NCBI GenBank assembly: GCA_043750055.1
Contig: JAYVCH010000170.1
Location: 1-36,547, forward strand
Source of the DNA: Fibrobacteria bacterium
Lineage (GTDB): Bacteria > Fibrobacterota > Fibrobacteria > UBA11236
Length of the DNA: 36,547 nucleotides
Reading direction: 5' to 3'
The notes below the pieces were generated by a model. It was not told the origin of the DNA. It was given only the letters and a program-made list of their open reading frames with translations, and made no database searches. The position numbers were made by a program, and so were the translations under genes. Shown in pieces: positions 2,584-36,547 of this stretch; within the stretch, counting starts at the first letter, position 1; the number at the start of each line of letters is the position of its first letter.

Positions 2584-4587
2584 TTAGTCCAAATCAAGTC
2601 GGACCCATTCAAATGGCAGCAGGGATATTTCCAAATCACCACCCGGATTGGAAATCATTTCATAAGGCATTGAACGATAGCCTTCCGGATCCCTCATAGC
2701 CTTCAGTGCATTTTTTTCATTCATTCTTCGCAAGCCAAGGACTCGACCCATAGACTCTAACGTCACTTTGCCCGGTTTTTCTTCCAGGTTGGCGATTAGA
2801 ATGGATCGTTTCATTCCCCTTCGAAGCATCACGCCATCAAAACAGAGTGGCTCATCCGATTCCAAATCATGGACCTCGCCGCCTTTGAACTCAACGAAAT
2901 CAGCAAACACATGGTACAGAGGATAGACCCAAGCACGATCCAGTTGCATGTCCGAATTAGGAATCGTCAAATCTTCAGTTGAAAGTGATGCTCCACTCAA
3001 AACTCCAAGCATCCCGGAGGTTTCATAAAAAGTGGACGAAAGGCCGGATCCGTAATTGTTTAAAGCGAGACGCTTTAGCGTTCCCAACGTCCACCCTGCT
3101 CCCAAGAGGGAGAATTGTCTGGTGTCCACCTGAACCTTCCAAAAGTCATCCGGTACCCTCTCATTCCCTTTTTTTAAGGCTAAGGCGAGATGCGCTCGGG
3201 GTATGGAAATGGAACTGATATTCCATTTTTTCTTCGGGCCAATCAGGGCAGTTGTTTTCAAGATCCATTCTTGCCCTTGTAAAGATTCGACCAAGGTACG
3301 ATTGTCGAAGAGATGAACTTGAGGGGTCATCGCAAAGACTAATTCGGTATCACCACCTAAATCAGGTCGATTCCGATTTAAGAGAACAAAGTCCCCCTTT
3401 GATCCAATCGCAAAAGTAGCCGCGGGATTTAAGGGTTTTAAAATTTGGATCGCTAATTCCAATTCATGGGGGTTAATGGAATCCACCTGCTCGGAAAAGA
3501 CCAGCCACCGTATTGCCTTACCGCCGGTTCTTATCCAGGCTTCTGCAAAAGCCACCAACGCGTCTTCTTTATTTTCCTTCGGGATAAATAACCCGACCTC
3601 TAATGGAATATCAAGGGCCTTGGATTCCGCCACCGCTTTTTCAAGGTCTGCTAGGTAACTTGGATGTGACAGTCTAAAATTTGCACGTAAGTGGGTGGGA
3701 GAAAGATTTTTAATCCTGGCAATATCCCCTTTAGCCAAAGAATGGCCATGCGAGGCACATCCAAATCCCCATAATGGAACAGGCTTACCTGCACTCTTTC
3801 CAAGGCGCAGACCTAGCTTAAGGATTGGATTAGGAATTGGGTTAGCGATTAAATCGGATAATGGGTTCGGAAATAGTCGCTTCAACCCTTCGATTTCCAA
3901 ATGAACGGATTGATCGGTTTTCCATCCCACATCGACCTTGAAAGGTTTGGGTTTATCGGCAGGAGGACAATAGGTTTTGAAGGATCCATCAGACCAATTC
4001 CGTTGGTCCTCCATTTCAAAAGTATCCCCTTTAAAATGAAGCGACGCCCAAAGGTTCGGTTCCAATTCATAGGAAAAGAATTGAAAATCCAGAAAGGGCT
4101 GACGAGGATTAATCGTTTCTGGAAAATGGCCCTCTCGTAAAACGGCATCCTTTCCCTTGAGCCGAACGGGACGTCCTACACATTCATTAAGCGGGTGTAG
4201 GAGACAAATAGCGATACGATTGGCATGAAAGGTCCCCTCGGATTGACCCAATGCCTCAAACCGCAGTCGACCATCGGAATGGCCTTCTATTCTTACCTTC
4301 CAAGAAAAATCATAAGGTCCCTGCTTGTGAACAAGATTGTAAGAAGCAAGAAAAGAATCAGGGCGATTTTCAACGGATTGTTCCGAGAGCTCGCCTGAAA
4401 TAGTTTCCCAAGTAGGCCCGCGCACCGAGGTATAAATTCTCCGAATGACCTCTTTATTTCCAAGGCGAATACGACGGAGCTCCCCATTCTCAAGGAGCAT
4501 GGTGAGAGGGCCCGCCCTCAAGGGTATGGAGAGCGGGAGATGGTTTGGCCCTCCACAGCGGATAGCCGGTATCGATAAAATTGCCAT
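2584..4587 (-). CDS. D-apionate lactonase (ApnL)-like protein
   Basis: 667 aa with segments I recognise from the ApnL family: LRAGPL...GELRRIR, NRIAICLLHP, FEMEDQRNWSDGSFKTY, then PQVHLFD and VYPLYHVF in the C-terminal half. True substrate not established. Confidence 0.7.
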   Translation of the reverse strand: MAILSIPAIRCGGPNHLPLSIPLRAGPLTMLLENGELRRIRLGNKEVIRRIYTSVRGPTWETISGELSEQSVENRPDSFLASYNLVHKQGPYDFSWKVRIEGHSDGRLRFEALGQSEGTFHANRIAICLLHPLNECVGRPVRLKGKDAVLREGHFPETINPRQPFLDFQFFSYELEPNLWASLHFKGDTFEMEDQRNWSDGSFKTYCPPADKPKPFKVDVGWKTDQSVHLEIEGLKRLFPNPLSDLIANPIPNPILKLGLRLGKSAGKPVPLWGFGCASHGHSLAKGDIARIKNLSPTHLRANFRLSHPSYLADLEKAVAESKALDIPLEVGLFIPKENKEDALVAFAEAWIRTGGKAIRWLVFSEQVDSINPHELELAIQILKPLNPAATFAIGSKGDFVLLNRNRPDLGGDTELVFAMTPQVHLFDNRTLVESLQGQEWILKTTALIGPKKKWNISSISIPRAHLALALKKGNERVPDDFWKVQVDTRQFSLLGAGWTLGTLKRLALNNYGSGLSSTFYETSGMLGVLSGASLSTEDLTIPNSDMQLDRAWVYPLYHVFADFVEFKGGEVHDLESDEPLCFDGVMLRRGMKRSILIANLEEKPGKVTLESMGRVLGLRRMNEKNALKAMRDPEGYRSMPYEMISNPGGDLEISLLPFEWVRLDLD

Positions 4588-24353: not shown

Positions 24354-26483
24354 TTAATCGAAATCCCATTTTTTTCGCATGAGCCATGCCAAGGCCAGGG
24401 GTAGCAGTATGAAAAAGAATAGCGGGATAGTATTGAATAAGCGAATTGACTTAGTCTTTTCAACCCGAGTTTCTGCTGCGGGCAATGAAGGTAACACAGA
24501 AGATACCGCATTTGTATCAAGTGCGACCGTATATTTCGCTTGAGAAATGAGGCGGCCTCCGGACCGACTCGCCAATTCATTCAGGGTCGTTTCGTCGAAT
24601 CCGATTTTTGCAAGCTCTAATACGATTTTGGGCGCTACTTCCAGCGAATCGCTCCTGAGTTTTTGCGACCCTTTTTGCAGCGTGATTTCATATTGTCCGG
24701 GATCCAAAATAATACTTTTCCACACCGGGTCCTCTTCATGTCCCGCTTGGACGAGAGGCAAAATTCTTGTTCCTTTGGAACCCGTTCTTGTTCCATTGGA
24801 ACCCGCAATCCATAGCTTCAAAGTGGAATCGTCTCGGTTGGCGGCTCTATGGCCTATGGAAAGCGAATCTGGAAGATGATAGGCAATATCGAAAGGTACG
24901 CTTTCATAAGCTCTATTCGGTTTCGAAATTCTGATAGTATTGTCCTGTCGATCCGCCAGGTTTCTCGCGAATTTAATATAAGCTGTGATATTTGATCGCG
25001 GCCCAAAGTCAGCTTGGGGATCGAAAAAGAAATTCCAAATATCGGGAAGTATTAAAAACAAGGCCCCCTTTCCGCCACCCAAGGAAAGCTTACCCACCAA
25101 CAACCCTCGATGATCCCCTTCAGACACTTCCACTAATGCGGTTAGGCCCTGATTGAGCGCTGGAGCTTTTACTCCTTTTGGAGAAACTGCTTTGAGGCTA
25201 AGAATTTCATCTGGAAATTGTTCTGAAACCGACCGGGCCACTTTAATTTCCGAAGCTGGGGAAAACGCGTTCCAATTCCCATCCAGAAAAGCGGGCCTAC
25301 GCTGATTTTTGATTTCTGAGATTCGGGAATAAACTACCACTTTACCAGGAGATTGTTGAAGGGCCCCTAATTCTTTACCGGCCTGGGGGAACAATCCCGA
25401 TTCAATCCAAATCTGATCCTTGCTTGTCACCCTCATTCCCGGAAATTCTTCCATCGAGAAAAATATGAGATCGTGACTTTGCGATTCGGATAGTATTTCG
25501 AACAGGCCTTTTTCATCCAGGCTGCGCAAGGGGCGTGCGACGAATATTCTTTTTCTCAGCCTTCCTTGGGGAAATAAAATGGGAAGCGTGTCATTGTAGT
25601 GATCCAGGTTCAGTTCTAAGCGCTCGGGTTGTAGGATGGCTTTGAAGGCTGCCCCCTCCTCCCCGAAGGTTTTTTCTGGAGACCAATCAAATCGAGTAGT
25701 AATAGCCCCGATACCGGGAGGAAGCTTGCGTGTTACCATGATTTTTCCATCTTGGACTATGCGTAAAGTCGGCGCGCCGGCTAGGCGGCTCAAAACCTTG
25801 TACTGAACCAAAACCTGGCTGGCCTTTCCTCCTGAATCCCATGTGATGCGAACATTTTCGGGTTGTACTTCTCCAGATGAATCCGTCGGGAAAATCACTG
25901 GATACACAGGTGCACTCCATGACCGTGAAGCTCTCCCCGAATCCAGATTGGCCCGTCCATCGGAAAAAAGAAAGATGGCTTGTAGGTTAGGAATGGACAT
26001 AGAATCCACAAAATCGGCAACGGATGATAAACTGGTCAATTCCAAAGGTACGTTCCCTTGGTATGACTTCGGATGCGATACACTCTGCGACTCAGAAGCC
26101 CTACTTGGCCATACCCCTTTATTGAAATCTGCGAATCGGATCTCAAATTCCCGATTTTTATAAAATTGAATCAGGGACTGTTCAAAAGAAGTATACGCCC
26201 CGTTAAGTCCCAAAAAATGGCCATTTTGAAAACTGCCGCTTTGGTCACGGACTACTAGAATGACTGGAGGATGAAATTCAACACGGTGCCGTCTCAATTC
26301 GGGCGCCGTCAGAGAAAGGGTCAACAAAACCAATGCCAAAGTTTGGAGGGCGAAGAGAATCCACCCTCCCAAAGCTGGGCCTGATCTCACAATACCGGTT
26401 GCATACTGACGCCATAAAAAGAAAACTCCTGGAGGCAGAAGAAGCAAGAACCAAAGGCTTCCGTTGAAATGAAGGGAAAGCAT
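24354..26483 (-). CDS. Membrane-anchored vWA (MIDAS) domain protein
   Basis: Two N-terminal TM helices, MIDAS motif RDQSGSF plus FLFSDG, Ig-like segment ending in YND, LNELASRSGG, and a C-terminal TM ending AWLMRKK. Confidence 0.75.
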   Translation of the reverse strand: MLSLHFNGSLWFLLLLPPGVFFLWRQYATGIVRSGPALGGWILFALQTLALVLLTLSLTAPELRRHRVEFHPPVILVVRDQSGSFQNGHFLGLNGAYTSFEQSLIQFYKNREFEIRFADFNKGVWPSRASESQSVSHPKSYQGNVPLELTSLSSVADFVDSMSIPNLQAIFLFSDGRANLDSGRASRSWSAPVYPVIFPTDSSGEVQPENVRITWDSGGKASQVLVQYKVLSRLAGAPTLRIVQDGKIMVTRKLPPGIGAITTRFDWSPEKTFGEEGAAFKAILQPERLELNLDHYNDTLPILFPQGRLRKRIFVARPLRSLDEKGLFEILSESQSHDLIFFSMEEFPGMRVTSKDQIWIESGLFPQAGKELGALQQSPGKVVVYSRISEIKNQRRPAFLDGNWNAFSPASEIKVARSVSEQFPDEILSLKAVSPKGVKAPALNQGLTALVEVSEGDHRGLLVGKLSLGGGKGALFLILPDIWNFFFDPQADFGPRSNITAYIKFARNLADRQDNTIRISKPNRAYESVPFDIAYHLPDSLSIGHRAANRDDSTLKLWIAGSNGTRTGSKGTRILPLVQAGHEEDPVWKSIILDPGQYEITLQKGSQKLRSDSLEVAPKIVLELAKIGFDETTLNELASRSGGRLISQAKYTVALDTNAVSSVLPSLPAAETRVEKTKSIRLFNTIPLFFFILLPLALAWLMRKKWDFD

Positions 26484-28142: not shown

Positions 28143-28292
28143 CCATGCCTGCGTTCACTGGTTCTGGCCAAATATATAAATTTTAGCTCTTTAGCCCTTA
28201 GAACCGTTCCCCTTGCCTTGCCGTAAGTGAACGGTAGAGGTACTTTTACATCGCCTAATGAGCCCTGTGATTGGGGTTGGAGAACTCGCGCT

Positions 28293-30149
28293 ATGACATT
28301 GGAATGGATGAAGAAACAGGCCCCATGGGTCATCGGAACTTTTGGTGTATTAATTCTGGTTGGCCTGGTTATGATGGACCGGGCAGGAGCCTCACGCTCG
28401 GATCGCCACCATAATATCGTCGGGAAAGTCGATGGGGAAGAAATTTCAACCGACCGATTCCAAGCGGAACTCAAGAACTACATTCGCGGCCAAGAATCCC
28501 AGGCCGGAAAAGCTCCCGAAGGCGCCCAATTGGCGCAGATTCGGGAAGGCCTCTTTAACTATAAAGTCCAAACCCTGGTAATCCAAAAAGTGTTTGATGT
28601 GTATCAGTTGCATGCGTCAAAAGAAGAGATGATGGACTTTGTCGCTAAGCATCCCCACGAAGTGGCTCAAAATATTCAACGCTATCGTGGTTACGAAGAA
28701 GTACCCTCCTTCCTCGCAGACAGCAATATCGATCAAAGCCGCTATGAAAATTGGTTGGCCCAGGATTCCATCTATGATCGCTATTCCATGCGTGAGTTGG
28801 AAGCGAACCTCCGATCTTCCGTCATTCCCCAAACGCAATTACAACAGATCATGAAATCCCAAATTCACCGCACAACGCTGGAAGAAGCCTTCTCGATTTC
28901 TCAACACGAAAATAAAGCTCGACTCAAGTTTTATCATGTCGCATTGGATTCCTTCCCAGCATCTCCTGAAAAATTTAAGGATTCCGATTTGAAGGCTTAT
29001 TACGAAGCCCACCCCGATAGCTTCTACTTTAAAGAAAACGCCGCTCGGCTTGGATTTATTCGCGTTCCCCTACAGCCTTCGAAAACTGACAGCAACTTGA
29101 TGTTTGAATTCGGAAAAGAATTAAAAGAACGCGCCAAGAATGGTGAGAAATTTTCCGACCTTGCCAAAGATTATTCCAACGATCCTACCACTCAGGACAA
29201 AGGAGGGAAAATAGAAGGCTTGAGATCCCGTTCTGGGCTGGAACCTTCCTTAGCTAACGCTGCTTTTGCAATGAATCCTGGCGAGGTATCCGATCCCATT
29301 CTAAGTCAGGGAGGATATCACGTTATCCTTTTGAACGAAAAGAAAAAGGTGGACACGACTGAAAAGGTAGATGTCAGTGATATTCTCTTAAAAATTACCG
29401 CAGGGACAGAAACCATCGATAGTTTGATGGAGTATGCAGAAAAAATTCGCGCGCTTGCTCAAAAAGACGGGTTGGAAAAGGCGGCTAAGTCTGCTTCGAT
29501 CATAGCTGGAAAGTCTCCCATTTTCGATAAGAGTAACTTCTCTCCCCTTCCAACCGGATATGTTCAAGGTGCGAATTCTTTCGCCTTCAGCAAATTCGAA
29601 GCAAAGGAAAATATTTCTGAGGCCTTACAATCGGAAGATGGAATTTATTTGTTTGAACGCGATGGGATATTTGAAAAAGGTCGAAATTTTGAACGCGCGA
29701 AACCAAAGATCCTAGAAATACTAGTCCGCGAAGAAAAATTGAATGCGGCTAAAAAAGAGTTGGAAGCACAAAAGGATGCCATCCTAGCCGCAAATGAGGG
29801 CTCCTTGCCAGCTTCATTTGGAAAAGCCAAGTTGGATAGCACTAGCGCCGGCGCCATCTCTGCCGACAATTGGCTTCCAGGCTTTGGCTACTCCAGCCCC
29901 ACCCTCTTTAAAGTCTTCGCTCAGGCTCCCGGTGGATGGGGATCGATATTAATCTCTGATCAGGGTGCAATTATTGCCAAAGTTGTGGAAAAAATCCCCA
30001 TGTCGGAAAAGGAAATCACGGATAAGGCCCAAGCTCAATTGGCTCAAAATGAACCTTATCAATTATCTAGCCTGTATCAGGAATGGCTAACCAACCTTCC
30101 AAAATCAGTAAAAGTGGAAAATAAAATGGATATGGTCTTTAGGAATTAG
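28293..30149 (+). CDS. ppiD: PpiD-like membrane-anchored periplasmic chaperone (SurA N-terminal domain plus parvulin domain)
   Basis: N-terminal TM followed by VGKVDGEEIS, LKAYYEAH, FSDLAKDYSND...KGG, GEVSDPI.SQGGYHVI. Start placed at ATG 28293 (GGAG upstream) rather than GTG 28227. Confidence 0.85.
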   Translation: MTLEWMKKQAPWVIGTFGVLILVGLVMMDRAGASRSDRHHNIVGKVDGEEISTDRFQAELKNYIRGQESQAGKAPEGAQLAQIREGLFNYKVQTLVIQKVFDVYQLHASKEEMMDFVAKHPHEVAQNIQRYRGYEEVPSFLADSNIDQSRYENWLAQDSIYDRYSMRELEANLRSSVIPQTQLQQIMKSQIHRTTLEEAFSISQHENKARLKFYHVALDSFPASPEKFKDSDLKAYYEAHPDSFYFKENAARLGFIRVPLQPSKTDSNLMFEFGKELKERAKNGEKFSDLAKDYSNDPTTQDKGGKIEGLRSRSGLEPSLANAAFAMNPGEVSDPILSQGGYHVILLNEKKKVDTTEKVDVSDILLKITAGTETIDSLMEYAEKIRALAQKDGLEKAAKSASIIAGKSPIFDKSNFSPLPTGYVQGANSFAFSKFEAKENISEALQSEDGIYLFERDGIFEKGRNFERAKPKILEILVREEKLNAAKKELEAQKDAILAANEGSLPASFGKAKLDSTSAGAISADNWLPGFGYSSPTLFKVFAQAPGGWGSILISDQGAIIAKVVEKIPMSEKEITDKAQAQLAQNEPYQLSSLYQEWLTNLPKSVKVENKMDMVFRN

Positions 30150-30204: not shown

Positions 30205-30232
30205 TTGACTTGCAATAAGAACTTGGTAACTT
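30205..30232 (+). promoter_or_regulatory. Candidate sigma70-type promoter of the small ORF
   Basis: TTGACT - 16 nt - TAACTT with a TGn extension, ending 8 nt before ATG 30241. Confidence 0.45.
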
Positions 30233-30240
30233 GAGAATAG

Positions 30241-30378
30241 ATGAAGAAGCTTATCATTTTAACGGTTATATGTTTTACCCTAGTTGGGATCGGAAACGTA
30301 TTCAGCCGCAGCATTTCAATTTTTTCGCAGCCTGTCGAGGATTCCGGCTGGGCAATGTTCAAAGAGCTTTTTCACTAA
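30241..30378 (+). CDS. Unannotated 45-aa exported peptide (MKKLIILTVICFTLVGIGNVFS-RSISIFSQPVEDSGWAMFKELFH)
   Basis: Manual translation. Classical Sec signal peptide (MKK, 15-aa hydrophobic core, VFS cleavage site), flanked by a promoter-like element and a terminator-like element. Below the 60-aa cutoff of the ORF track. Confidence 0.65.
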   Translation: MKKLIILTVICFTLVGIGNVFSRSISIFSQPVEDSGWAMFKELFH

Positions 30379-30441
30379 TTCGCTAAACGAATTCTCTCGC
30401 CCTTAATCGGAAATTCCAAATTCGGTAATTTTTACTTTTCA

Positions 30442-30472
30442 GGCTCATTTTCCAAAAATGGGCTAGTTTTTT
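30442..30472 (+). terminator. Probable intrinsic terminator after the small ORF
   Basis: GGCTCATTTT-CCA-AAAATGGGCT then AG-TTTTTT. The two mismatches are G-U wobbles only on the plus strand. Confidence 0.55.
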
Positions 30473-30582
30473 AGAAGTTAGGGCCTGTATTCTGCCCACG
30501 CCCCGTTTTGTGAGCATTTTGATGTTGGCGCATTTCTCTCCCGCACCCTAGAATACTCAAGATCCCTTTCCTAAGAGGCAGC

Positions 30583-31641
30583 TTGGAATCCAAAGGTAAT
30601 ATCCTCATCGTTGACGACGAACAATCGATCTGTACGGTCATTTGCGATTATCTCCGATTACAAGGATATAATTGTGCGAGTGCCAATGCCGTAGATGCAG
30701 CAATACAAATCCTTCAGACTGCTGAAAGTGTCGATTGTATTCTTTCGGATATCAAAATGCCTGGAAAAACGGGAATCGATTTGCTCCGTGAAGTCAAAAC
30801 CTATTGGCCGGAAATGGCGGTCATTCTTTTCACTGGCAATGCAGAAATACACACTGCAGTTTCATCCATGCAAGATGGGGCTTATGACTTCATTTTAAAA
30901 CCCATCCAACTCAAACAAGTCATTAACAGTATTACCAATGCCCTCGAGAAAAAACGTTTAAAGCTTGAAGTGCGAAACTACCAAAGGAATTTGGAAAACC
31001 TGGTTTTGGAACGAACCACTCAGATCAAGGAAGCCATGTTAGCGCTCGAAGGGTCCCACCTCGATACCATAAATCGGCTTTGTCAGGCTGCTGAATATCG
31101 GGATGATGAAACCGGCCACCATGTACTACGAATCAGTAAGTATTGCGAGGTTCTCGCCAGAGGCATCGGTTTTTCGGAAGAAGATAATTGGCTGTTGAGT
31201 AAAGCAAGTCCACTGCATGACATTGGAAAAATAGGAATTCCAGATTCCATCCTTTTAAAACCCGGTAGACTCACCGCGGACGAATTTGAAATCATGAAAA
31301 AGCATGCTGAAATTGGTGGCCAGATTCTCAAAAATGCGACCTCGAAGGTTCTGCAAGTTGCCGAAACCGTGGCCATAAGTCACCATGAAAAGTGGGATGG
31401 AAGTGGCTACCCAAAGGGCTTGCGCGGAGAACAGATCCCGTTGATGGGTCGAATCACAGCTGTTGCAGACGTATTCGATGCATTGACCATGAAACGTTGC
31501 TACAAACCTCCCTTCACACTGGAGACCTCCGTCAACATCATAACCGATGGCAGAGGAAAGCATTTTGATCCACGAATCGTAGATATTTTTATCGCCCACT
31601 TACCTGAATTCGTCGCCATCCAAAAGGACTATGCAGAGTAA
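30583..31641 (+). CDS. Response regulator with HD-GYP c-di-GMP phosphodiesterase domain (RpfG-like)
   Basis: REC motifs IVDDE, SDIKMP, FTG, FILKP; coiled-coil linker; EYRDDETGHH, LHDIGK, HHEKWDGSGYP, ADVFDAL, RCYK. TTG start with GAGG upstream. Confidence 0.94.
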   Translation: MESKGNILIVDDEQSICTVICDYLRLQGYNCASANAVDAAIQILQTAESVDCILSDIKMPGKTGIDLLREVKTYWPEMAVILFTGNAEIHTAVSSMQDGAYDFILKPIQLKQVINSITNALEKKRLKLEVRNYQRNLENLVLERTTQIKEAMLALEGSHLDTINRLCQAAEYRDDETGHHVLRISKYCEVLARGIGFSEEDNWLLSKASPLHDIGKIGIPDSILLKPGRLTADEFEIMKKHAEIGGQILKNATSKVLQVAETVAISHHEKWDGSGYPKGLRGEQIPLMGRITAVADVFDALTMKRCYKPPFTLETSVNIITDGRGKHFDPRIVDIFIAHLPEFVAIQKDYAE

Positions 31642-31691: not shown

Positions 31692-34600
31692 TTACATTTT
31701 GAGAATTCTGCGAGTGGCCTTGTAAGACGATTTTCCGGCAATCTTGGTTTCCAAAGACAGAGTATATACACCGGCCGGAAGCGGTGACTGCTTTCCATTG
31801 GTGCCATCCCACAAGTAGCTCAAAGAATTAAATCCTTTAATGTTTTTTTCAAAAACCGTTTTGCCACGGAAGTCCGTCACTCTCAGATTAAATACAACCT
31901 TACCCATGCTTGCGGGTAATGCATATCGAATCAATGTTGAGCCCGAAAAAGGATTCGGATAATTCGATAGACTCATCGTATTTGCGGGAGAAATCCCTGC
32001 CAAAATCCCCTCCAAATAATTTGCATCGCCGGCCACAACATGGTAATCATTAAATTTGAGTTCCGATTCACTCAAATGTATTGAATCACCATTCAAGGGT
32101 AAAACGGTTTTGTGCAATGATTCCACCAAGTATAACGGAATCGCTTGGTTGTTGTCCGACACCTTAAGGGTGATGCTCTGGGTACCCTTATTTGCAAGGG
32201 ATTGTAAAAGCCAATGTCCTTGCCAAGTGCCCTCGTCACTTTGAACAAACTCTGATAGCCCTTCTACACTCCCATCCGGTCGGAATCGTTTGAGAACCAT
32301 TCGGAAGTCCTGACCGGGAACATCTGGAGCCTCACCATAAACACCTTCACGACTCGATTTTCCAATTTGTAGAGACATGGCTGCCGTGGAGTTGTATGCA
32401 AGTAGGCGCGCTGTCCAATTGCTCTTATTGGGTGCGGCTGTTTTCGGTCCCCCTGCAGCCAAAGAACGGGCCGAATCCAAAACCGGAAATTTTAAAGTAA
32501 TGGCAGAAGTCGGTTTGATGGTTAATCCATCCCATGGATGTAATACCGAAGTGTCCTTAATAGCCTCCCAAGATAGTGCTGGAGGCTTTGAAGGATTAAA
32601 CCTGAATATCGTAGGCGAAGTAGCTAAACCAGACGCATCTAAAATATCCTTCATTTTCATTGAGAAATTAAACGGAAGGGAAATATCCATCCACTGACCG
32701 GCTGGAATAGGAAGGACAAAAGTCTGATAATCAAGAGAGACCCCAGACTCACATGCCGGGTCGTAAGGACGAACAGAACCTGACCAAATCGCCCTAGCCG
32801 AATCAAACTTCACTGCCGCTGCAGAACCACCATCATAAATGGTGAAAGATGATTTTCCGGTTCCCGATCCATTGTACTTCATTAGTCGAAGTTCATCAGG
32901 ATCCCATTTTTTCGCACCTACAATTCGACTTTGATTTCCTGTTTCACCCTCATCCCAAGGATAACCGTAAAGATTCCATGTACGTTCCTTGAACTCCTTT
33001 TTATCTGCCGACTGCAAATGTTCGTCCTTAAACTTGGATCGGATAAAAGCTCGACTACGCGAAACTTTAGATCCATCGAAGATGGTGAACTCAACCTCTA
33101 TACTTCTCGATGCCTTTCTACCTACAGAACCATCCTTATATTTTTTGTTAATAGGAATAGAAAGAATTGCCTCGCTCAATTCACCTTTTCCGTTGATAGA
33201 AAGATTCGGGTTTTTATACACAATAGAGGAATCGAACCCTCCAGCCGTGACCGTGGTATCTAGCAGAAATGGTTTGTTCTGGCCCGCACCCATAGTAGAG
33301 GTTACTTCGTTTCCGGCTGCCTTTTGATAATACCGGAAGTATCGATCCTTTTGTTGATCAACAGTTAGGTCGGCCAAATTAGTGGAGACGGCCAAGGTGC
33401 TGAGAGGATAGGTGCCGGAGAGAATTCCTGACGCCATTCCACCAGCTGGAATCATACTCACTAGAACTAATGGGTTTGCCGTTTTAAATCCGCTTCCCTT
33501 GATTGCGATGGAAATATGACTGGTTGAGTCCCCGGCCGTCGAATAATCGAACGTGGGAACCGTTGGGCCTGAAAACTCAACTTTTCCTGGTTCGGCGGCA
33601 TCGGCCAATCGGCCAAAGGCATAATGCAAAGTTCCACCCTTAATTCCTTCAATGGTCAACAGGGTCTTAGCCCCATTTTGCTCTATGCTCCAGGTTGATA
33701 CATGAATTGGAAGTGAGGAAGAATCTTCAGGGAGTAGAAACAATTCCTTGCCGCTTAGAAAATCAGCAGGAATACTCATTTCAATTGTTGCTTTAAAAGA
33801 TTGGGTAGACCCTGCCACCCCTAAACTGGGTACGTTAATTACAAAAATGATTTCGGGAAGGGGGGAAAGCAGGTTGAGGTTATAAATATTGGGATTTGCC
33901 AATGTCACAAATTGTGGATTTTTAACAACACTTCCTGTTTCGACTTTGTTGGAAAAGGAAACCTTGGTTAGAAATTTACCAGTCCAAGGATCTCCTGAAT
34001 TGATGAAAACGCCATCCGCACTAGGACAAGCCGAAGTTGATATTTGGAATGTACAGTCACCCGGTTCAACATTAACGCTTGTCCTTATGGTATCTCGGTA
34101 AGAATAGCCCATCGATCGAACACCACCAACCGTTCGTCCAAAAGCCGCGTAAAGATTATAAAGCTTGTTCTCATTGAGTCCATCAGCGACATCGTTAATA
34201 GAACCCGATTCCAATTGCTTGATTGGAAATTTTTTAAGTTGCGAAGCCGGTACCGTCCCATCAAGGGTAGGCTTTAAGGCACCGGACACCCACCAAACAT
34301 ATAGGGTATCGCTTTCTGCCGGATCGTAATTACTGGTGCTGACCTCAAAAAGAAACCGGCTAAACACATTTTCTACGGCCGTGGTCTTTACTTTCAACCT
34401 TCCCTGTACGGTTGCATCGGCTATCACCATTTCATAGGCCCCGACATCTTTTTTCGCGCCTCTTGGCTTTCCTAAGATATCGGAAACTAAATTCACTTTG
34501 ACATCAGTAGTCAAACTAGCCGCTGGGAGTGAAGAACATTCCCGAATGGCGCTACAATTAAACGCTCCACCCAAGCCATCATCTAGTTCTTTATTTAAAC

Positions 34601-36547
34601 CCGGCTGCTTGGTTAAATCCATGGTGGCCAAGGCATCATTGCTGTCGAGTCCACCGCTGTTAGTCAAGAGCTGCAGGTTTGGTTTTCCAGTTGTAAAAAT
34701 ATTGTGATCCAAAACTACGGTTGTTTTTCCTTTAAAGCTCGAATCTAACGGCTGCTTAATATTCGAGAAAAAGTTATTCGAGATGGATGCCTTGACCGCG
34801 CCAACGCAAAGAATCCCGATAGTGCTTCCTGAATTAGGAATACCCGCATCATCCACAAAAGTATTGTTAAAAATTTTGATTTCATTAGAAGTGGAATTTG
34901 TGATTTGCACCCCTTTTGTAAATCCCCAAACCACATTGTTGGTCATGCGCATACTTGCGGAACCCACATCGATATTGATTGCCGGGCCCTCTACCCCAAG
35001 GGCTTTATTCTGAGTTCGGAAAACGTTTGCATCTATAAGAGCACCACTGGCTTTAACGGAAATCCCAGCACGCCCAGTACTTCCTCCTGGCAATTCAATC
35101 ACAAATCCTCTGAGGGTTACATTTTTTCGATTGATGGTAATCGCTTCCTTGGTTTTACCCCGAAATACCGGACGGTTGTCCTCGAATTTGCCCAGTATCA
35201 TCTTGTTGGAAATCGTAATTGCCAAGGTATCGGACGGATTTGCAGGAATTACAATATCTTCCATTGCCACAACCGGAGAGGATGGCAAAATAAAAATGAT
35301 TCCACCGCCTTTTACCTCAACTAAGGCTGTGTCGAGGGTACAGAATGGCGATCCCTCACGACCGTCCGCAACTGCACAGCTTGCGGTTATTGCTCGTGGA
35401 AGGACATAAAGGGTGTCTCCAGCGACTGCCTTGAGATTGATAGGCGGATTTGTAGGGGTTGTGGAAGCGCCCAGTTTTGGAGAACCATTCAGTGTCCCAA
35501 CGGGTATGGCATAAAAGCGATAAGACCCTTTTAGTAATCCTGTAAAATCAAACCTGACGGTTCCTGTTGGCCCCGGCGCCGCTAACGACTTACTCGTCTC
35601 CGTTGTGCCATCGGTAGCAACAACCCGAATACTGTCAAGCGCATCCCCAGAGTGACTCACACTAATGGATACTTCACCCATCACATAATTACTCCCTGTT
35701 GAACCATCAGGTACAATAGTCAGAGCCAGGTTACTGCTGGGATAGGACGGAACATCTATCCCTTTAGTGATAGCCGCCGCAGAGAGTACCGCTGCTTGCG
35801 ATGTACTTCGGTAGTGAAGCATTTTGACATAAATTTGCTTACCGCTATTTCGCATTGCAATTGGCACGACAAGCGTTGAATCCCAACCAGAAAAATTCTT
35901 TTTCACAAATGGGCTTTTAATTTTCAAAGTAGCGGAGTCATTGGATACGGTCAGATTGCTGTATAGTGTGTCAAAGAAAAAATACATCACCGAGGGAGCA
36001 AGAGTCTGTTTGTAATAATCAAAAGAAAAGGACATTTTGGTCATTTTTATTTTAGCGCTATCCAAGGCATACTTGGAAAAAGCCAGCCCATCTCCCTGTG
36101 CTCCCTCAATGATAGGATTAGGGGTTTCGATTGTATCAGCGGATACAAAAGCACCCACCTTGACATTTGCTGTCCATGCCAAGCCGGCCTTGAAGGAACC
36201 GAATCCATTTGGAAAATAAAGCTTCGCCGCGGTCAGACCTTCCTTTATATCAGCCATGCCATTCCAATTCCAAGTTGAACCTGTGAACACTTTGAACATT
36301 TTTCCAAAATCCGCATTATTGGCAGCCAAGGTGGGATCAGACCTTAATTCTGTCAGAGGATAGTCTTTGACCTCAGGTGCATTGGGGCCATAATTGGAGA
36401 ATCCTCTTGGCAGAACGGCATTGGAATTGACTCCCGTTGCCAGAGGAAAAGTGACAGCCCCTTCCGTCAAACTATTTGGATTTATTGAATTTTGAGCTAA
36501 GGGCGGGCTTCCCTTGGATGAGGAATATGCATTTTTCAAAATACCAT
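31692..36547 (-). CDS. Large secreted multidomain protein with right-handed parallel beta-helix and C-terminal T9SS/FlgD-Ig-type domain (5' partial)
   Basis: Frame stays open to the window edge (more than 1615 aa). GREGSPFCTLDTAL helix cap, Asn-ladder repeats (ANVF, NNVV, NNTF, NNFF, HNIF), DILGKPR...DVGAYE, WNLYGYP, and C-terminal NYPNPF...WDG...LPAGVY. Confidence 0.8.
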   Translation of the reverse strand, partial: GILKNAYSSSKGSPPLAQNSINPNSLTEGAVTFPLATGVNSNAVLPRGFSNYGPNAPEVKDYPLTELRSDPTLAANNADFGKMFKVFTGSTWNWNGMADIKEGLTAAKLYFPNGFGSFKAGLAWTANVKVGAFVSADTIETPNPIIEGAQGDGLAFSKYALDSAKIKMTKMSFSFDYYKQTLAPSVMYFFFDTLYSNLTVSNDSATLKIKSPFVKKNFSGWDSTLVVPIAMRNSGKQIYVKMLHYRSTSQAAVLSAAAITKGIDVPSYPSSNLALTIVPDGSTGSNYVMGEVSISVSHSGDALDSIRVVATDGTTETSKSLAAPGPTGTVRFDFTGLLKGSYRFYAIPVGTLNGSPKLGASTTPTNPPINLKAVAGDTLYVLPRAITASCAVADGREGSPFCTLDTALVEVKGGGIIFILPSSPVVAMEDIVIPANPSDTLAITISNKMILGKFEDNRPVFRGKTKEAITINRKNVTLRGFVIELPGGSTGRAGISVKASGALIDANVFRTQNKALGVEGPAINIDVGSASMRMTNNVVWGFTKGVQITNSTSNEIKIFNNTFVDDAGIPNSGSTIGILCVGAVKASISNNFFSNIKQPLDSSFKGKTTVVLDHNIFTTGKPNLQLLTNSGGLDSNDALATMDLTKQPGLNKELDDGLGGAFNCSAIRECSSLPAASLTTDVKVNLVSDILGKPRGAKKDVGAYEMVIADATVQGRLKVKTTAVENVFSRFLFEVSTSNYDPAESDTLYVWWVSGALKPTLDGTVPASQLKKFPIKQLESGSINDVADGLNENKLYNLYAAFGRTVGGVRSMGYSYRDTIRTSVNVEPGDCTFQISTSACPSADGVFINSGDPWTGKFLTKVSFSNKVETGSVVKNPQFVTLANPNIYNLNLLSPLPEIIFVINVPSLGVAGSTQSFKATIEMSIPADFLSGKELFLLPEDSSSLPIHVSTWSIEQNGAKTLLTIEGIKGGTLHYAFGRLADAAEPGKVEFSGPTVPTFDYSTAGDSTSHISIAIKGSGFKTANPLVLVSMIPAGGMASGILSGTYPLSTLAVSTNLADLTVDQQKDRYFRYYQKAAGNEVTSTMGAGQNKPFLLDTTVTAGGFDSSIVYKNPNLSINGKGELSEAILSIPINKKYKDGSVGRKASRSIEVEFTIFDGSKVSRSRAFIRSKFKDEHLQSADKKEFKERTWNLYGYPWDEGETGNQSRIVGAKKWDPDELRLMKYNGSGTGKSSFTIYDGGSAAAVKFDSARAIWSGSVRPYDPACESGVSLDYQTFVLPIPAGQWMDISLPFNFSMKMKDILDASGLATSPTIFRFNPSKPPALSWEAIKDTSVLHPWDGLTIKPTSAITLKFPVLDSARSLAAGGPKTAAPNKSNWTARLLAYNSTAAMSLQIGKSSREGVYGEAPDVPGQDFRMVLKRFRPDGSVEGLSEFVQSDEGTWQGHWLLQSLANKGTQSITLKVSDNNQAIPLYLVESLHKTVLPLNGDSIHLSESELKFNDYHVVAGDANYLEGILAGISPANTMSLSNYPNPFSGSTLIRYALPASMGKVVFNLRVTDFRGKTVFEKNIKGFNSLSYLWDGTNGKQSPLPAGVYTLSLETKIAGKSSYKATRRILKM

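Follow-up and report, generated by a model that had tools for sequence, protein, structure and literature searches.

A small gene kept across the Fibrobacterota whose product ends in a tail shared with unrelated, likely secreted proteins

The window analyzed here, 36,547 nucleotides in length, spans an entire contig from a genome that is 86% complete; it carries on its plus strand a 45-codon open reading frame (positions 30241–30378, including the stop codon) that is a real coding gene under purifying selection. On re-reading of the sequence, the frame and its 45-residue product are as the first-pass annotation had described them. The main point lay beyond what that annotation could see: by sequence comparison, the conserved end of the peptide is a tail that recurs on many likely secreted proteins, unrelated to one another, in other bacteria. 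Because the product has nothing beyond a predicted signal for export, a short spacer, and the ten residues of a tail shared with unrelated, likely exported proteins, it is probably an address label without cargo. The explanation that we tentatively favor is that the peptide serves as a cargo-free ligand of the envelope protein that reads the tail, a protein that probably works in type IX secretion and surface attachment.

Coding constraint, anatomy, and regulatory sites

Conservation in relatives, which had been named as a check on the earlier proposal, has been found both within the genus, where 13 of the 14 other genomes hold full-length homologues, and in the phylum, where 88 of 296 Fibrobacterota genomes hold homologues. 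The pN/pS ratio is 0.23 for codons 2–22 and 0.12 for the last 11 codons (18 loci), and it is 0.59 for the spacer (10 loci with the 45-residue form). Among 75 distinct close homologues of 44–54 residues, M1, G16, and the terminal W, L, and F are invariant, the tail K is present in 73, and exactly one residue stands between the tail F and the stop codon. Across the Fibrobacterota members read, the tail follows the consensus W-x-x-[IFL]-K-[DE]-[LI]-F-x-stop.

Residues 1–22 (30241–30306, plus strand) form a predicted Sec signal peptide; alternatively, they stay uncleaved as an anchor or are cut after Gly16. They are followed by a Ser/Leu/Pro-rich spacer, residues 23–34 (30307–30342), which varies in sequence and length in the alignment and, as a low-complexity stretch, reaches about 50 residues among the loci read. 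Residues 35–45 (30343–30375) form the conserved terminal amphipathic helix, W-x-x-F-K-E-L-F-x-stop, in the same register as the tails of the cargo proteins described below. In a structure model of the peptide (mean pLDDT 73), helices are placed at residues 3–28 and 36–43. That the tail is the working part of the peptide is well supported.

The hydrophobic moment of the tail, 0.44 at 100 degrees (helical) vs. 0.24 at 170 degrees, also speaks for a reading in which the tail would bind lipid without any protein reader, acting as a peripheral anchor on cargo and as a membrane-active peptide on its own. The membrane helices of the MinD and PBP5 type are similar in build. However, the invariant W, L, and F, the near-invariant K, and the fixed one-residue gap before the stop codon exceed what lipid binding needs, and the tail in the window's order is nearly neutral; we consider this reading very unlikely.

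Searches of Pfam, NCBIfam, and PDB sequences return no family for the peptide and, at most, weak lipoprotein-signal and signal-peptide look-alikes. The ESM Atlas gives no usable match for the two members tried, and a search of a 50%-representative set yields two true members and two unrelated matches. The earlier label “unannotated” therefore holds as far as families are concerned, but homologues are present in public sources under the name “hypothetical protein”. The gene had also been called possibly undescribed, and indeed neither the tail nor the peptide gene is described in the largely open-access literature searched. The cargo-free gene appears to be new. A weak match on contig C190 of the same genome, considered as a paralogue, is a non-coding frame.

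The gene stands alone behind its own promoter-like site (30205–30232, plus strand), as previously proposed. The site consists of TTGACT (30205–30210), a 16-nt spacer, and TAACTT (30227–30232) with a TG extension (TG-n-TAACTT), although a consensus promoter scan did not list it. A TAnnnT element is kept 7–9 nt 5′ of the ATG in 15 of the 17 homologous loci having upstream DNA, and a Shine–Dalgarno-like word precedes the ATG in one of the 17. As the -10 element stops 8 nt short of the ATG, the predicted mRNA has little or no leader, and we infer expression of the peptide from such a message. Over all contigs of the genome there is an excess of TAnnnT 6–9 nt before first ATGs (e.g., 5.2% vs. 0.8% at 6 nt), which points to a sizeable class of leaderless genes beside the Shine–Dalgarno-led ones.

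The strand-specific terminator reported earlier is present as a hairpin followed by a T run (30442–30464, plus strand), but it is weak (-9.6 kcal/mol, z -2.1, with 5 of 200 shuffles equally good) and its position is not conserved. In a lenient test that had no control, 11 of 18 intergenic regions contain some hairpin with a T run, placed differently from one to another, and a conserved terminator has been rejected. A type I toxin–antitoxin or other known RNA gene has been rejected as well: Rfam gives no match between 29800 and 31000 at E up to 1, neither antitoxin nor small RNA, and the gene is a single, fixed chromosomal copy.

Distribution and gene neighborhood

The reach of the gene across the phylum has been followed with a joint profile and then with a tail pattern. 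The pattern matches 89 of 296 genomes, vs. 8 matches for the reversed pattern. Three genomes were dropped, G266 and G062 for a TGG end without a stop codon and G083 for an in-frame stop, leaving 86, and G023 and G026, added apart from the pattern, bring the carriers to 88. The locus has been read in 59 of these and the other 29 rest on the tail pattern. All 59 loci show a signal-like start, a low-complexity spacer, and the tail, with no domain. The unpublished genome G011 is counted within the 13, 19, 88, 65, and 31 given in this text, and no conclusion depends on it.

Carriers hold one copy each, except for G208 and G015, which hold two. The two loci of G015 (L011 and L021, on contigs C3 and C20) are divergent ppiD–peptide loci with PpiD copies 68% and 51% like the window's PpiD, and the genome is possibly a mixed bin. 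The peptides of g14 match the f1 profile in the tail only (hhalign probability 88.8, E 2.5e-6, 16 columns) and share position and build with the f1 peptides. No peptide has been found in f5 (151 genomes), f2 (6), f6, f7, and f8 (2 each), or in 10 of the 12 g4 genomes; not all of these genomes are complete, and these searches would miss a tail that has diverged. Second pattern matches in G032 and G027 are out of frame or non-coding, and weak profile matches in f5 and G020 cover the hydrophobic stretch alone, inside longer frames; both have been rejected. The result is a small, phylum-wide gene that is nearly always single-copy.

The neighbors in the window are those named in the first-pass annotation: a PpiD-like chaperone with SurA_N and rotamase domains (28227–30149, plus strand), a REC-HD-GYP regulator with REC and HD domains (30583–31641, plus strand), and a large 1615-residue protein on the opposite strand (31692–36539, minus strand). 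No kinase family is found among the 25 window ORFs scanned. The large protein shows a weak FlgD_ig-type match at its C-terminus and is syntenic within the window's order; it is probably a type IX cargo and at most a candidate member of the peptide system. Elsewhere in the window, a 709-residue ORF without Pfam or NCBIfam match lies between nadB-like and mraZ genes (24354–26483, minus strand), and a 667-residue ORF without Pfam match (2584–4587, minus strand) adjoins an MFS transporter and matches D-apionate lactonase below the cut-off. The homologous loci carry the titles Fibrobacterota or Fibrobacteria.

The synteny with the HD-GYP gene that had been proposed as a check holds in the first locus set, where REC-HD-GYP lies 3′ of the peptide in 19 of 19 loci and ppiD lies 5′ in 18, the remaining contig beginning at the ATG. 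This adjacency is confined to the window's order, and it is lost in G196, f4, and f20. The G196 locus runs ppiD, peptide, and then the large secreted gene, with the regulator gone, and no regulator is found at E 1e-60 in this 84%-complete genome. Conversely, four f2 genomes have the regulator with no peptide upstream or by profile, and two g17 genomes have it without the peptide. In the f4 family, all 10 g14 genomes show ppiD, the peptide, and a GTPase gene, which we take to be Obg; both g17 genomes run from ppiD directly to the GTPase gene, and all 12 f4 genomes (g14 and g17) hold the regulator's likely orthologue elsewhere. The REC-HD-GYP gene also has a separate promoter-like site (TTGGCG, 18 nt, TAGAAT; 30525–30554, plus strand), conserved in 15 of 18 loci. 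The earlier suggestion that the peptide may feed into c-di-GMP control is not supported by these observations, and the link, which follows from order-limited synteny, is weak.

A signaling peptide, either a periplasmic cue or a diffusible pheromone whose sensor would pass to receiver proteins, here REC-HD-GYP and c-di-GMP, would account for the 19 of 19 loci and for the regulator's likely orthologue being somewhere in 31 of 32 carriers of the window's class. Receiver genes also lie just upstream of the peptide in about 18 of 28 loci of other classes (Pfam confirmed nine receiver proteins in six of these), and the largest tail-bearing cluster of cargo adjoins anti-sigma kinase and antagonist genes. 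In RRNPP quorum sensing, precursors of the Phr and PapR type consist of a signal peptide, a variable spacer, and an active C-terminal end. The peptide resembles them in its precursor of about 45 residues, signal peptide, variable middle, active C-terminal end, and adjoining regulator gene. It differs in its diderm host, in a REC-HD-GYP neighbor rather than a TPR regulator, in its phylum-invariant tail, and in a linkage that is not conserved, with adjacency lost in two families, six genomes having the regulator without the peptide, and G196 the reverse. Pheromones usually diversify into specificity groups, whereas the tail is nearly invariant across the phylum. Signaling also leaves the same tail on unrelated large proteins unexplained, and we regard it as unlikely.

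The upstream side of the locus is more widely kept. The ppiD gene is the upstream neighbor in five families (f1, f3, f4, f20, and f21), belonging to more than one class, and the ppiD–peptide order is probably the ancestral context. This could mean that the peptide works together with the PpiD-like chaperone where proteins leave the Sec channel: its helix, aromatic and amphipathic, would fill the chaperone's client site, and cargo tails elsewhere would recruit the same chaperone. SurA-family chaperones bind aromatic-rich peptides, and G196 kept the peptide behind ppiD after the loss of the HD-GYP gene. Yet 36 of the order's 39 genomes have ppiD, whether or not they have the peptide, the neighbor seen is not ppiD in 24 of 28 loci of other classes, and the peptide gene has its own promoter-like site, all of which makes such a partnership improbable.

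Several other arrangements have been seen around these loci. In another class, a tail-only gene follows a REC and HATPase_c_2 gene and a lone 121-residue receiver gene (L219, L220, L222, L224, and L232), with a STAS gene in between in L226. In three f2 loci where the peptide is missing (L057, L058, and L059), a 260-residue CxxCxxCC-type protein is convergent after ppiD, and a similar protein lies directly 3′ of the peptide in an f9 locus (L088, 3151–3927). In most g4 genomes (L047–L050, L053, and L054), an apparent tRNA gene and a glgC-like gene, assigned by eye, replace the peptide, the regulator, and the large secreted gene.

Probable export of the peptide and the tail on unrelated proteins

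The first-pass annotation had proposed a secreted peptide of 23 residues. The start of the peptide has a hydrophobic core and export via Sec is likely, but the mature length of 23 residues is a prediction. The (-3,-1) rule is passed after Ser22 by 48 of 75 close homologues, after Gly16 by 74, and after A15 by 58. Small residues dominate position 22 in the 75 close homologues, with no A-x-A at positions 20–22, while distant orthologues in f4, f9, f11, f13, f15, and f20 have ordinary A-x-A-type signal peptidase I sites. A cut after Ser22 is plausible for the window's peptide. Processing by signal peptidase II has been rejected: position 17, after L-A-G, is L, I, V, F, or M in 75 of 75, so that there is no lipobox cysteine, although weak LPAM_1 matches to the peptide are obtained. 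In many distant members Gln follows the predicted cut; since PMC5837995 describes the Bacteroidetes Q-rule as not general in the FCB group, this residue has been set aside as evidence for export.

A further trait of the long spacers is the motif D-[ST]-[AILMVT], present in 16 of 21 vs. 3.5 on average and never more than 13 over 5000 shuffles. PMC12871550 describes it as an O-glycosylation motif of non-cytoplasmic Bacteroidota proteins that is enriched in Fibrobacterota too. The window's own peptide lacks it.

The start of the peptide also allows an uncleaved form in the window's order, a single-pass inner-membrane protein with the tail helix held in the periplasm on a flexible tether. MgrB and AcrZ are small single-pass regulators of 45–49 residues with a short basic start, one hydrophobic helix, and a short C-terminal part, and the peptide is of the same size and build. 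Residues 1–22 are well conserved without indels, with a pN/pS that indicates constraint, Gly16 is invariant, positions 17–22 keep a helical polar/apolar pattern without A-x-A at the expected place, several members lack a clean Ser22 site, and the model helix runs continuously from residue 3 to 28. These observations count against the cleaved form that the type IX ligand reading assumes. On the other hand, the distant orthologues look cleavable, small residues prevail at position 22, and no AcrZ or MgrB family match is found at E up to 5. We therefore judge the uncleaved form quite unlikely, and it alters the tethering of the tail and not its role.

Outside the Fibrobacterota, the metagenome pattern T-W-x-K-I-K-x-L-F/Y-x-stop is found in at least 80 loci. 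Among the 80 listed, 42 matches end frames of at least 120 residues, of which 37 are closed and 5 open. The other 38 end short frames that are mostly AT-rich noise, with a few tail-only genes among them. Among these listed matches, a crude signal-like start is present in 32 of the 37 closed tail-bearing ORFs vs. 680 of 1879 control frames, and the bodies of the 37 fall into 14 BLAST clusters, one of 16 members. Domains found in the 20 tail-bearing ORFs scanned include choice-of-anchor V (in two), lamin-tail, and Spy/CpxP-like ones. The tail itself lies outside every NCBIfam and Pfam model, in these ORFs as in the peptide members scanned. Source labels are few and mixed (Zixibacteria, Acidobacteria, and Fodinibius), and three more tail-bearing neighbors have been found outside the pattern. 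We infer that the tail serves as a signal for sorting or docking.

When all 59,760 stop-ended frames of the window's own genome are ranked against the cargo tails, the last 16 residues of the peptide come first, with a score of 23.0 vs. a frame mean of -15.9 (sd 6.8). This likeness is partly built in because the cargo set was picked with a pattern drawn from the peptide family, with 3 of the 37 cargo tails in the ranking coming from outside the pattern. Within the Fibrobacterota, no cargo with the tail has been found in 11 genomes (G000 by translation and ten by pattern), and thus the peptide would have no cargo to compete with there, a point against the ligand reading.

Among the cargo, a conserved secreted protein of 135–170 residues bears the tail in nine loci (L102, L106, L109, L117, L123, L132, L151, L170, and L171). 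It lies after rex in eight loci and before anti-sigma antagonist and anti-sigma kinase genes where the DNA extends, and one member of the cluster is labelled Zixibacteria. Two further loci (L100, 574–2217; L139, 2504–4144) hold tandem pairs of secreted proteins in which both members end in the tail.

Type IX machinery and the proposed role of the peptide

Genes for SprA, a PorU-like protease, and the PorV family are present in the three carriers tested (G000, G023, and G032), the canonical PorU copy of G000 being cut by the contig end. Since SprA, C25/PorU, and PorV-family genes are found in non-carriers as well, the type IX core can do without the peptide, which also counts against the ligand reading. 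One neighbor of a tail-bearing cargo gene carries a type A T9SS tail.

Two PorU-like types have been found, and the long one is distinct from canonical PorU. It is a C25 protease of about 1610–1640 residues (contig C16 of the window's genome, 4535–9454, minus strand; also L246) that keeps the GHG motif and the invariant Cys; its scores against the PorU and PorU2 models fall short of their cut-offs. It is present in 75 of 296 genomes, 65 of 88 carriers vs. 10 of 208 non-carriers, counts that come from a single-protein query which may miss diverged copies and from kin that are not independent, 151 of the non-carriers being one family. Within the order its distribution is the same as that of REC-HD-GYP (25 of 39 each). 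In a profile re-search, none of five carriers tested, including one whose genome is a single contig, has the protease, which rules it out as an obligate partner. Four f2 genomes encode the protease but lack the peptide, and both g17 genomes have neither the peptide nor a C25 match. The co-occurrence of peptide and protease may come about through shared loss in reduced genomes. Complex prediction with residues 16–45 of the peptide and residues 26–985 of the protease, the C-terminal 600 residues being left out, scored 0.00 twice against a mark of 0.32 and is uninformative either way. A separate observation concerns G032, of the same family as g17, which has three tandem canonical PorU-like genes (L244, 4325–16006).

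The comparison with known sorting signals gives likeness and difference. According to PMC11285876 and PMC11969387, T9SS C-terminal domains of type A (TIGR04183) are beta-sheet domains of 40–82 residues with motifs B, D, and E that work with PorV and the PorU sortase. The present system shares with them a predicted Sec signal joined to a C-terminal signal common to unrelated proteins, the superphylum, and the presence of SprA, PorU-like, and PorV-family proteins. The tail here is instead one helix of about ten residues, and in the peptide it has no cargo. TIGR04183 and PF18962 give no match to 17–18 peptide members at E up to 5, and the beta-strand build of the known signals, at least 40 residues in PMC11969387, is a point against the type IX ligand.

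The tripartite signals (LPXTG, PEP-CTERM, GlyGly-CTERM, and MYXO-CTERM), as presented in bioRxiv 10.1101/2023.06.07.544157, likewise place a short common tail after a Thr/Ser/Pro-rich spacer. The tail is found behind a choice-of-anchor V domain and on unrelated proteins (14 clusters), outside the Fibrobacterota only. Unlike them, it lacks a transmembrane helix or basic cluster, it also exists as a stand-alone gene, and a sortase is only a candidate.

As a cargo-free ligand of the reader of the tail, the peptide would be exported by Sec as about 23 residues, with the terminal amphipathic helix as its sole conserved working part. Toward the envelope protein that recognizes the tail, it would play the part of a placeholder, a decoy, or a monitor of export, and this reader would belong to the type IX secretion and surface-attachment pathway. 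In such a regulatory role, the target of this address label without cargo would be machinery of the cell envelope and not the neighboring c-di-GMP gene. A broader version of this proposal is possible but doubtful: a short, undescribed helical sorting signal in FCB-type bacteria may have a dedicated cargo-free version, exported, phylum-wide, and single-copy, that occupies or reports on its reader as a monitor or placeholder of type IX secretion. This version would have outlived all tail-bearing cargo in the Fibrobacterota, and it may even be the ancestral ligand which cargo proteins co-opted as an address.

The ten-residue tail occurs on many likely exported proteins of little-studied phyla and has no curated model. 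That a gene of signal, spacer, and tail is kept across a phylum seemingly without tail-bearing cargo shows that the tail has a function in itself. The peptide would also be the simplest bait for the reader of the tail, for which a synthetic 10- to 23-mer should be enough. If it is true that the peptide regulates or monitors type IX export, it would be a new control element for the display of enzymes by polysaccharide degraders.
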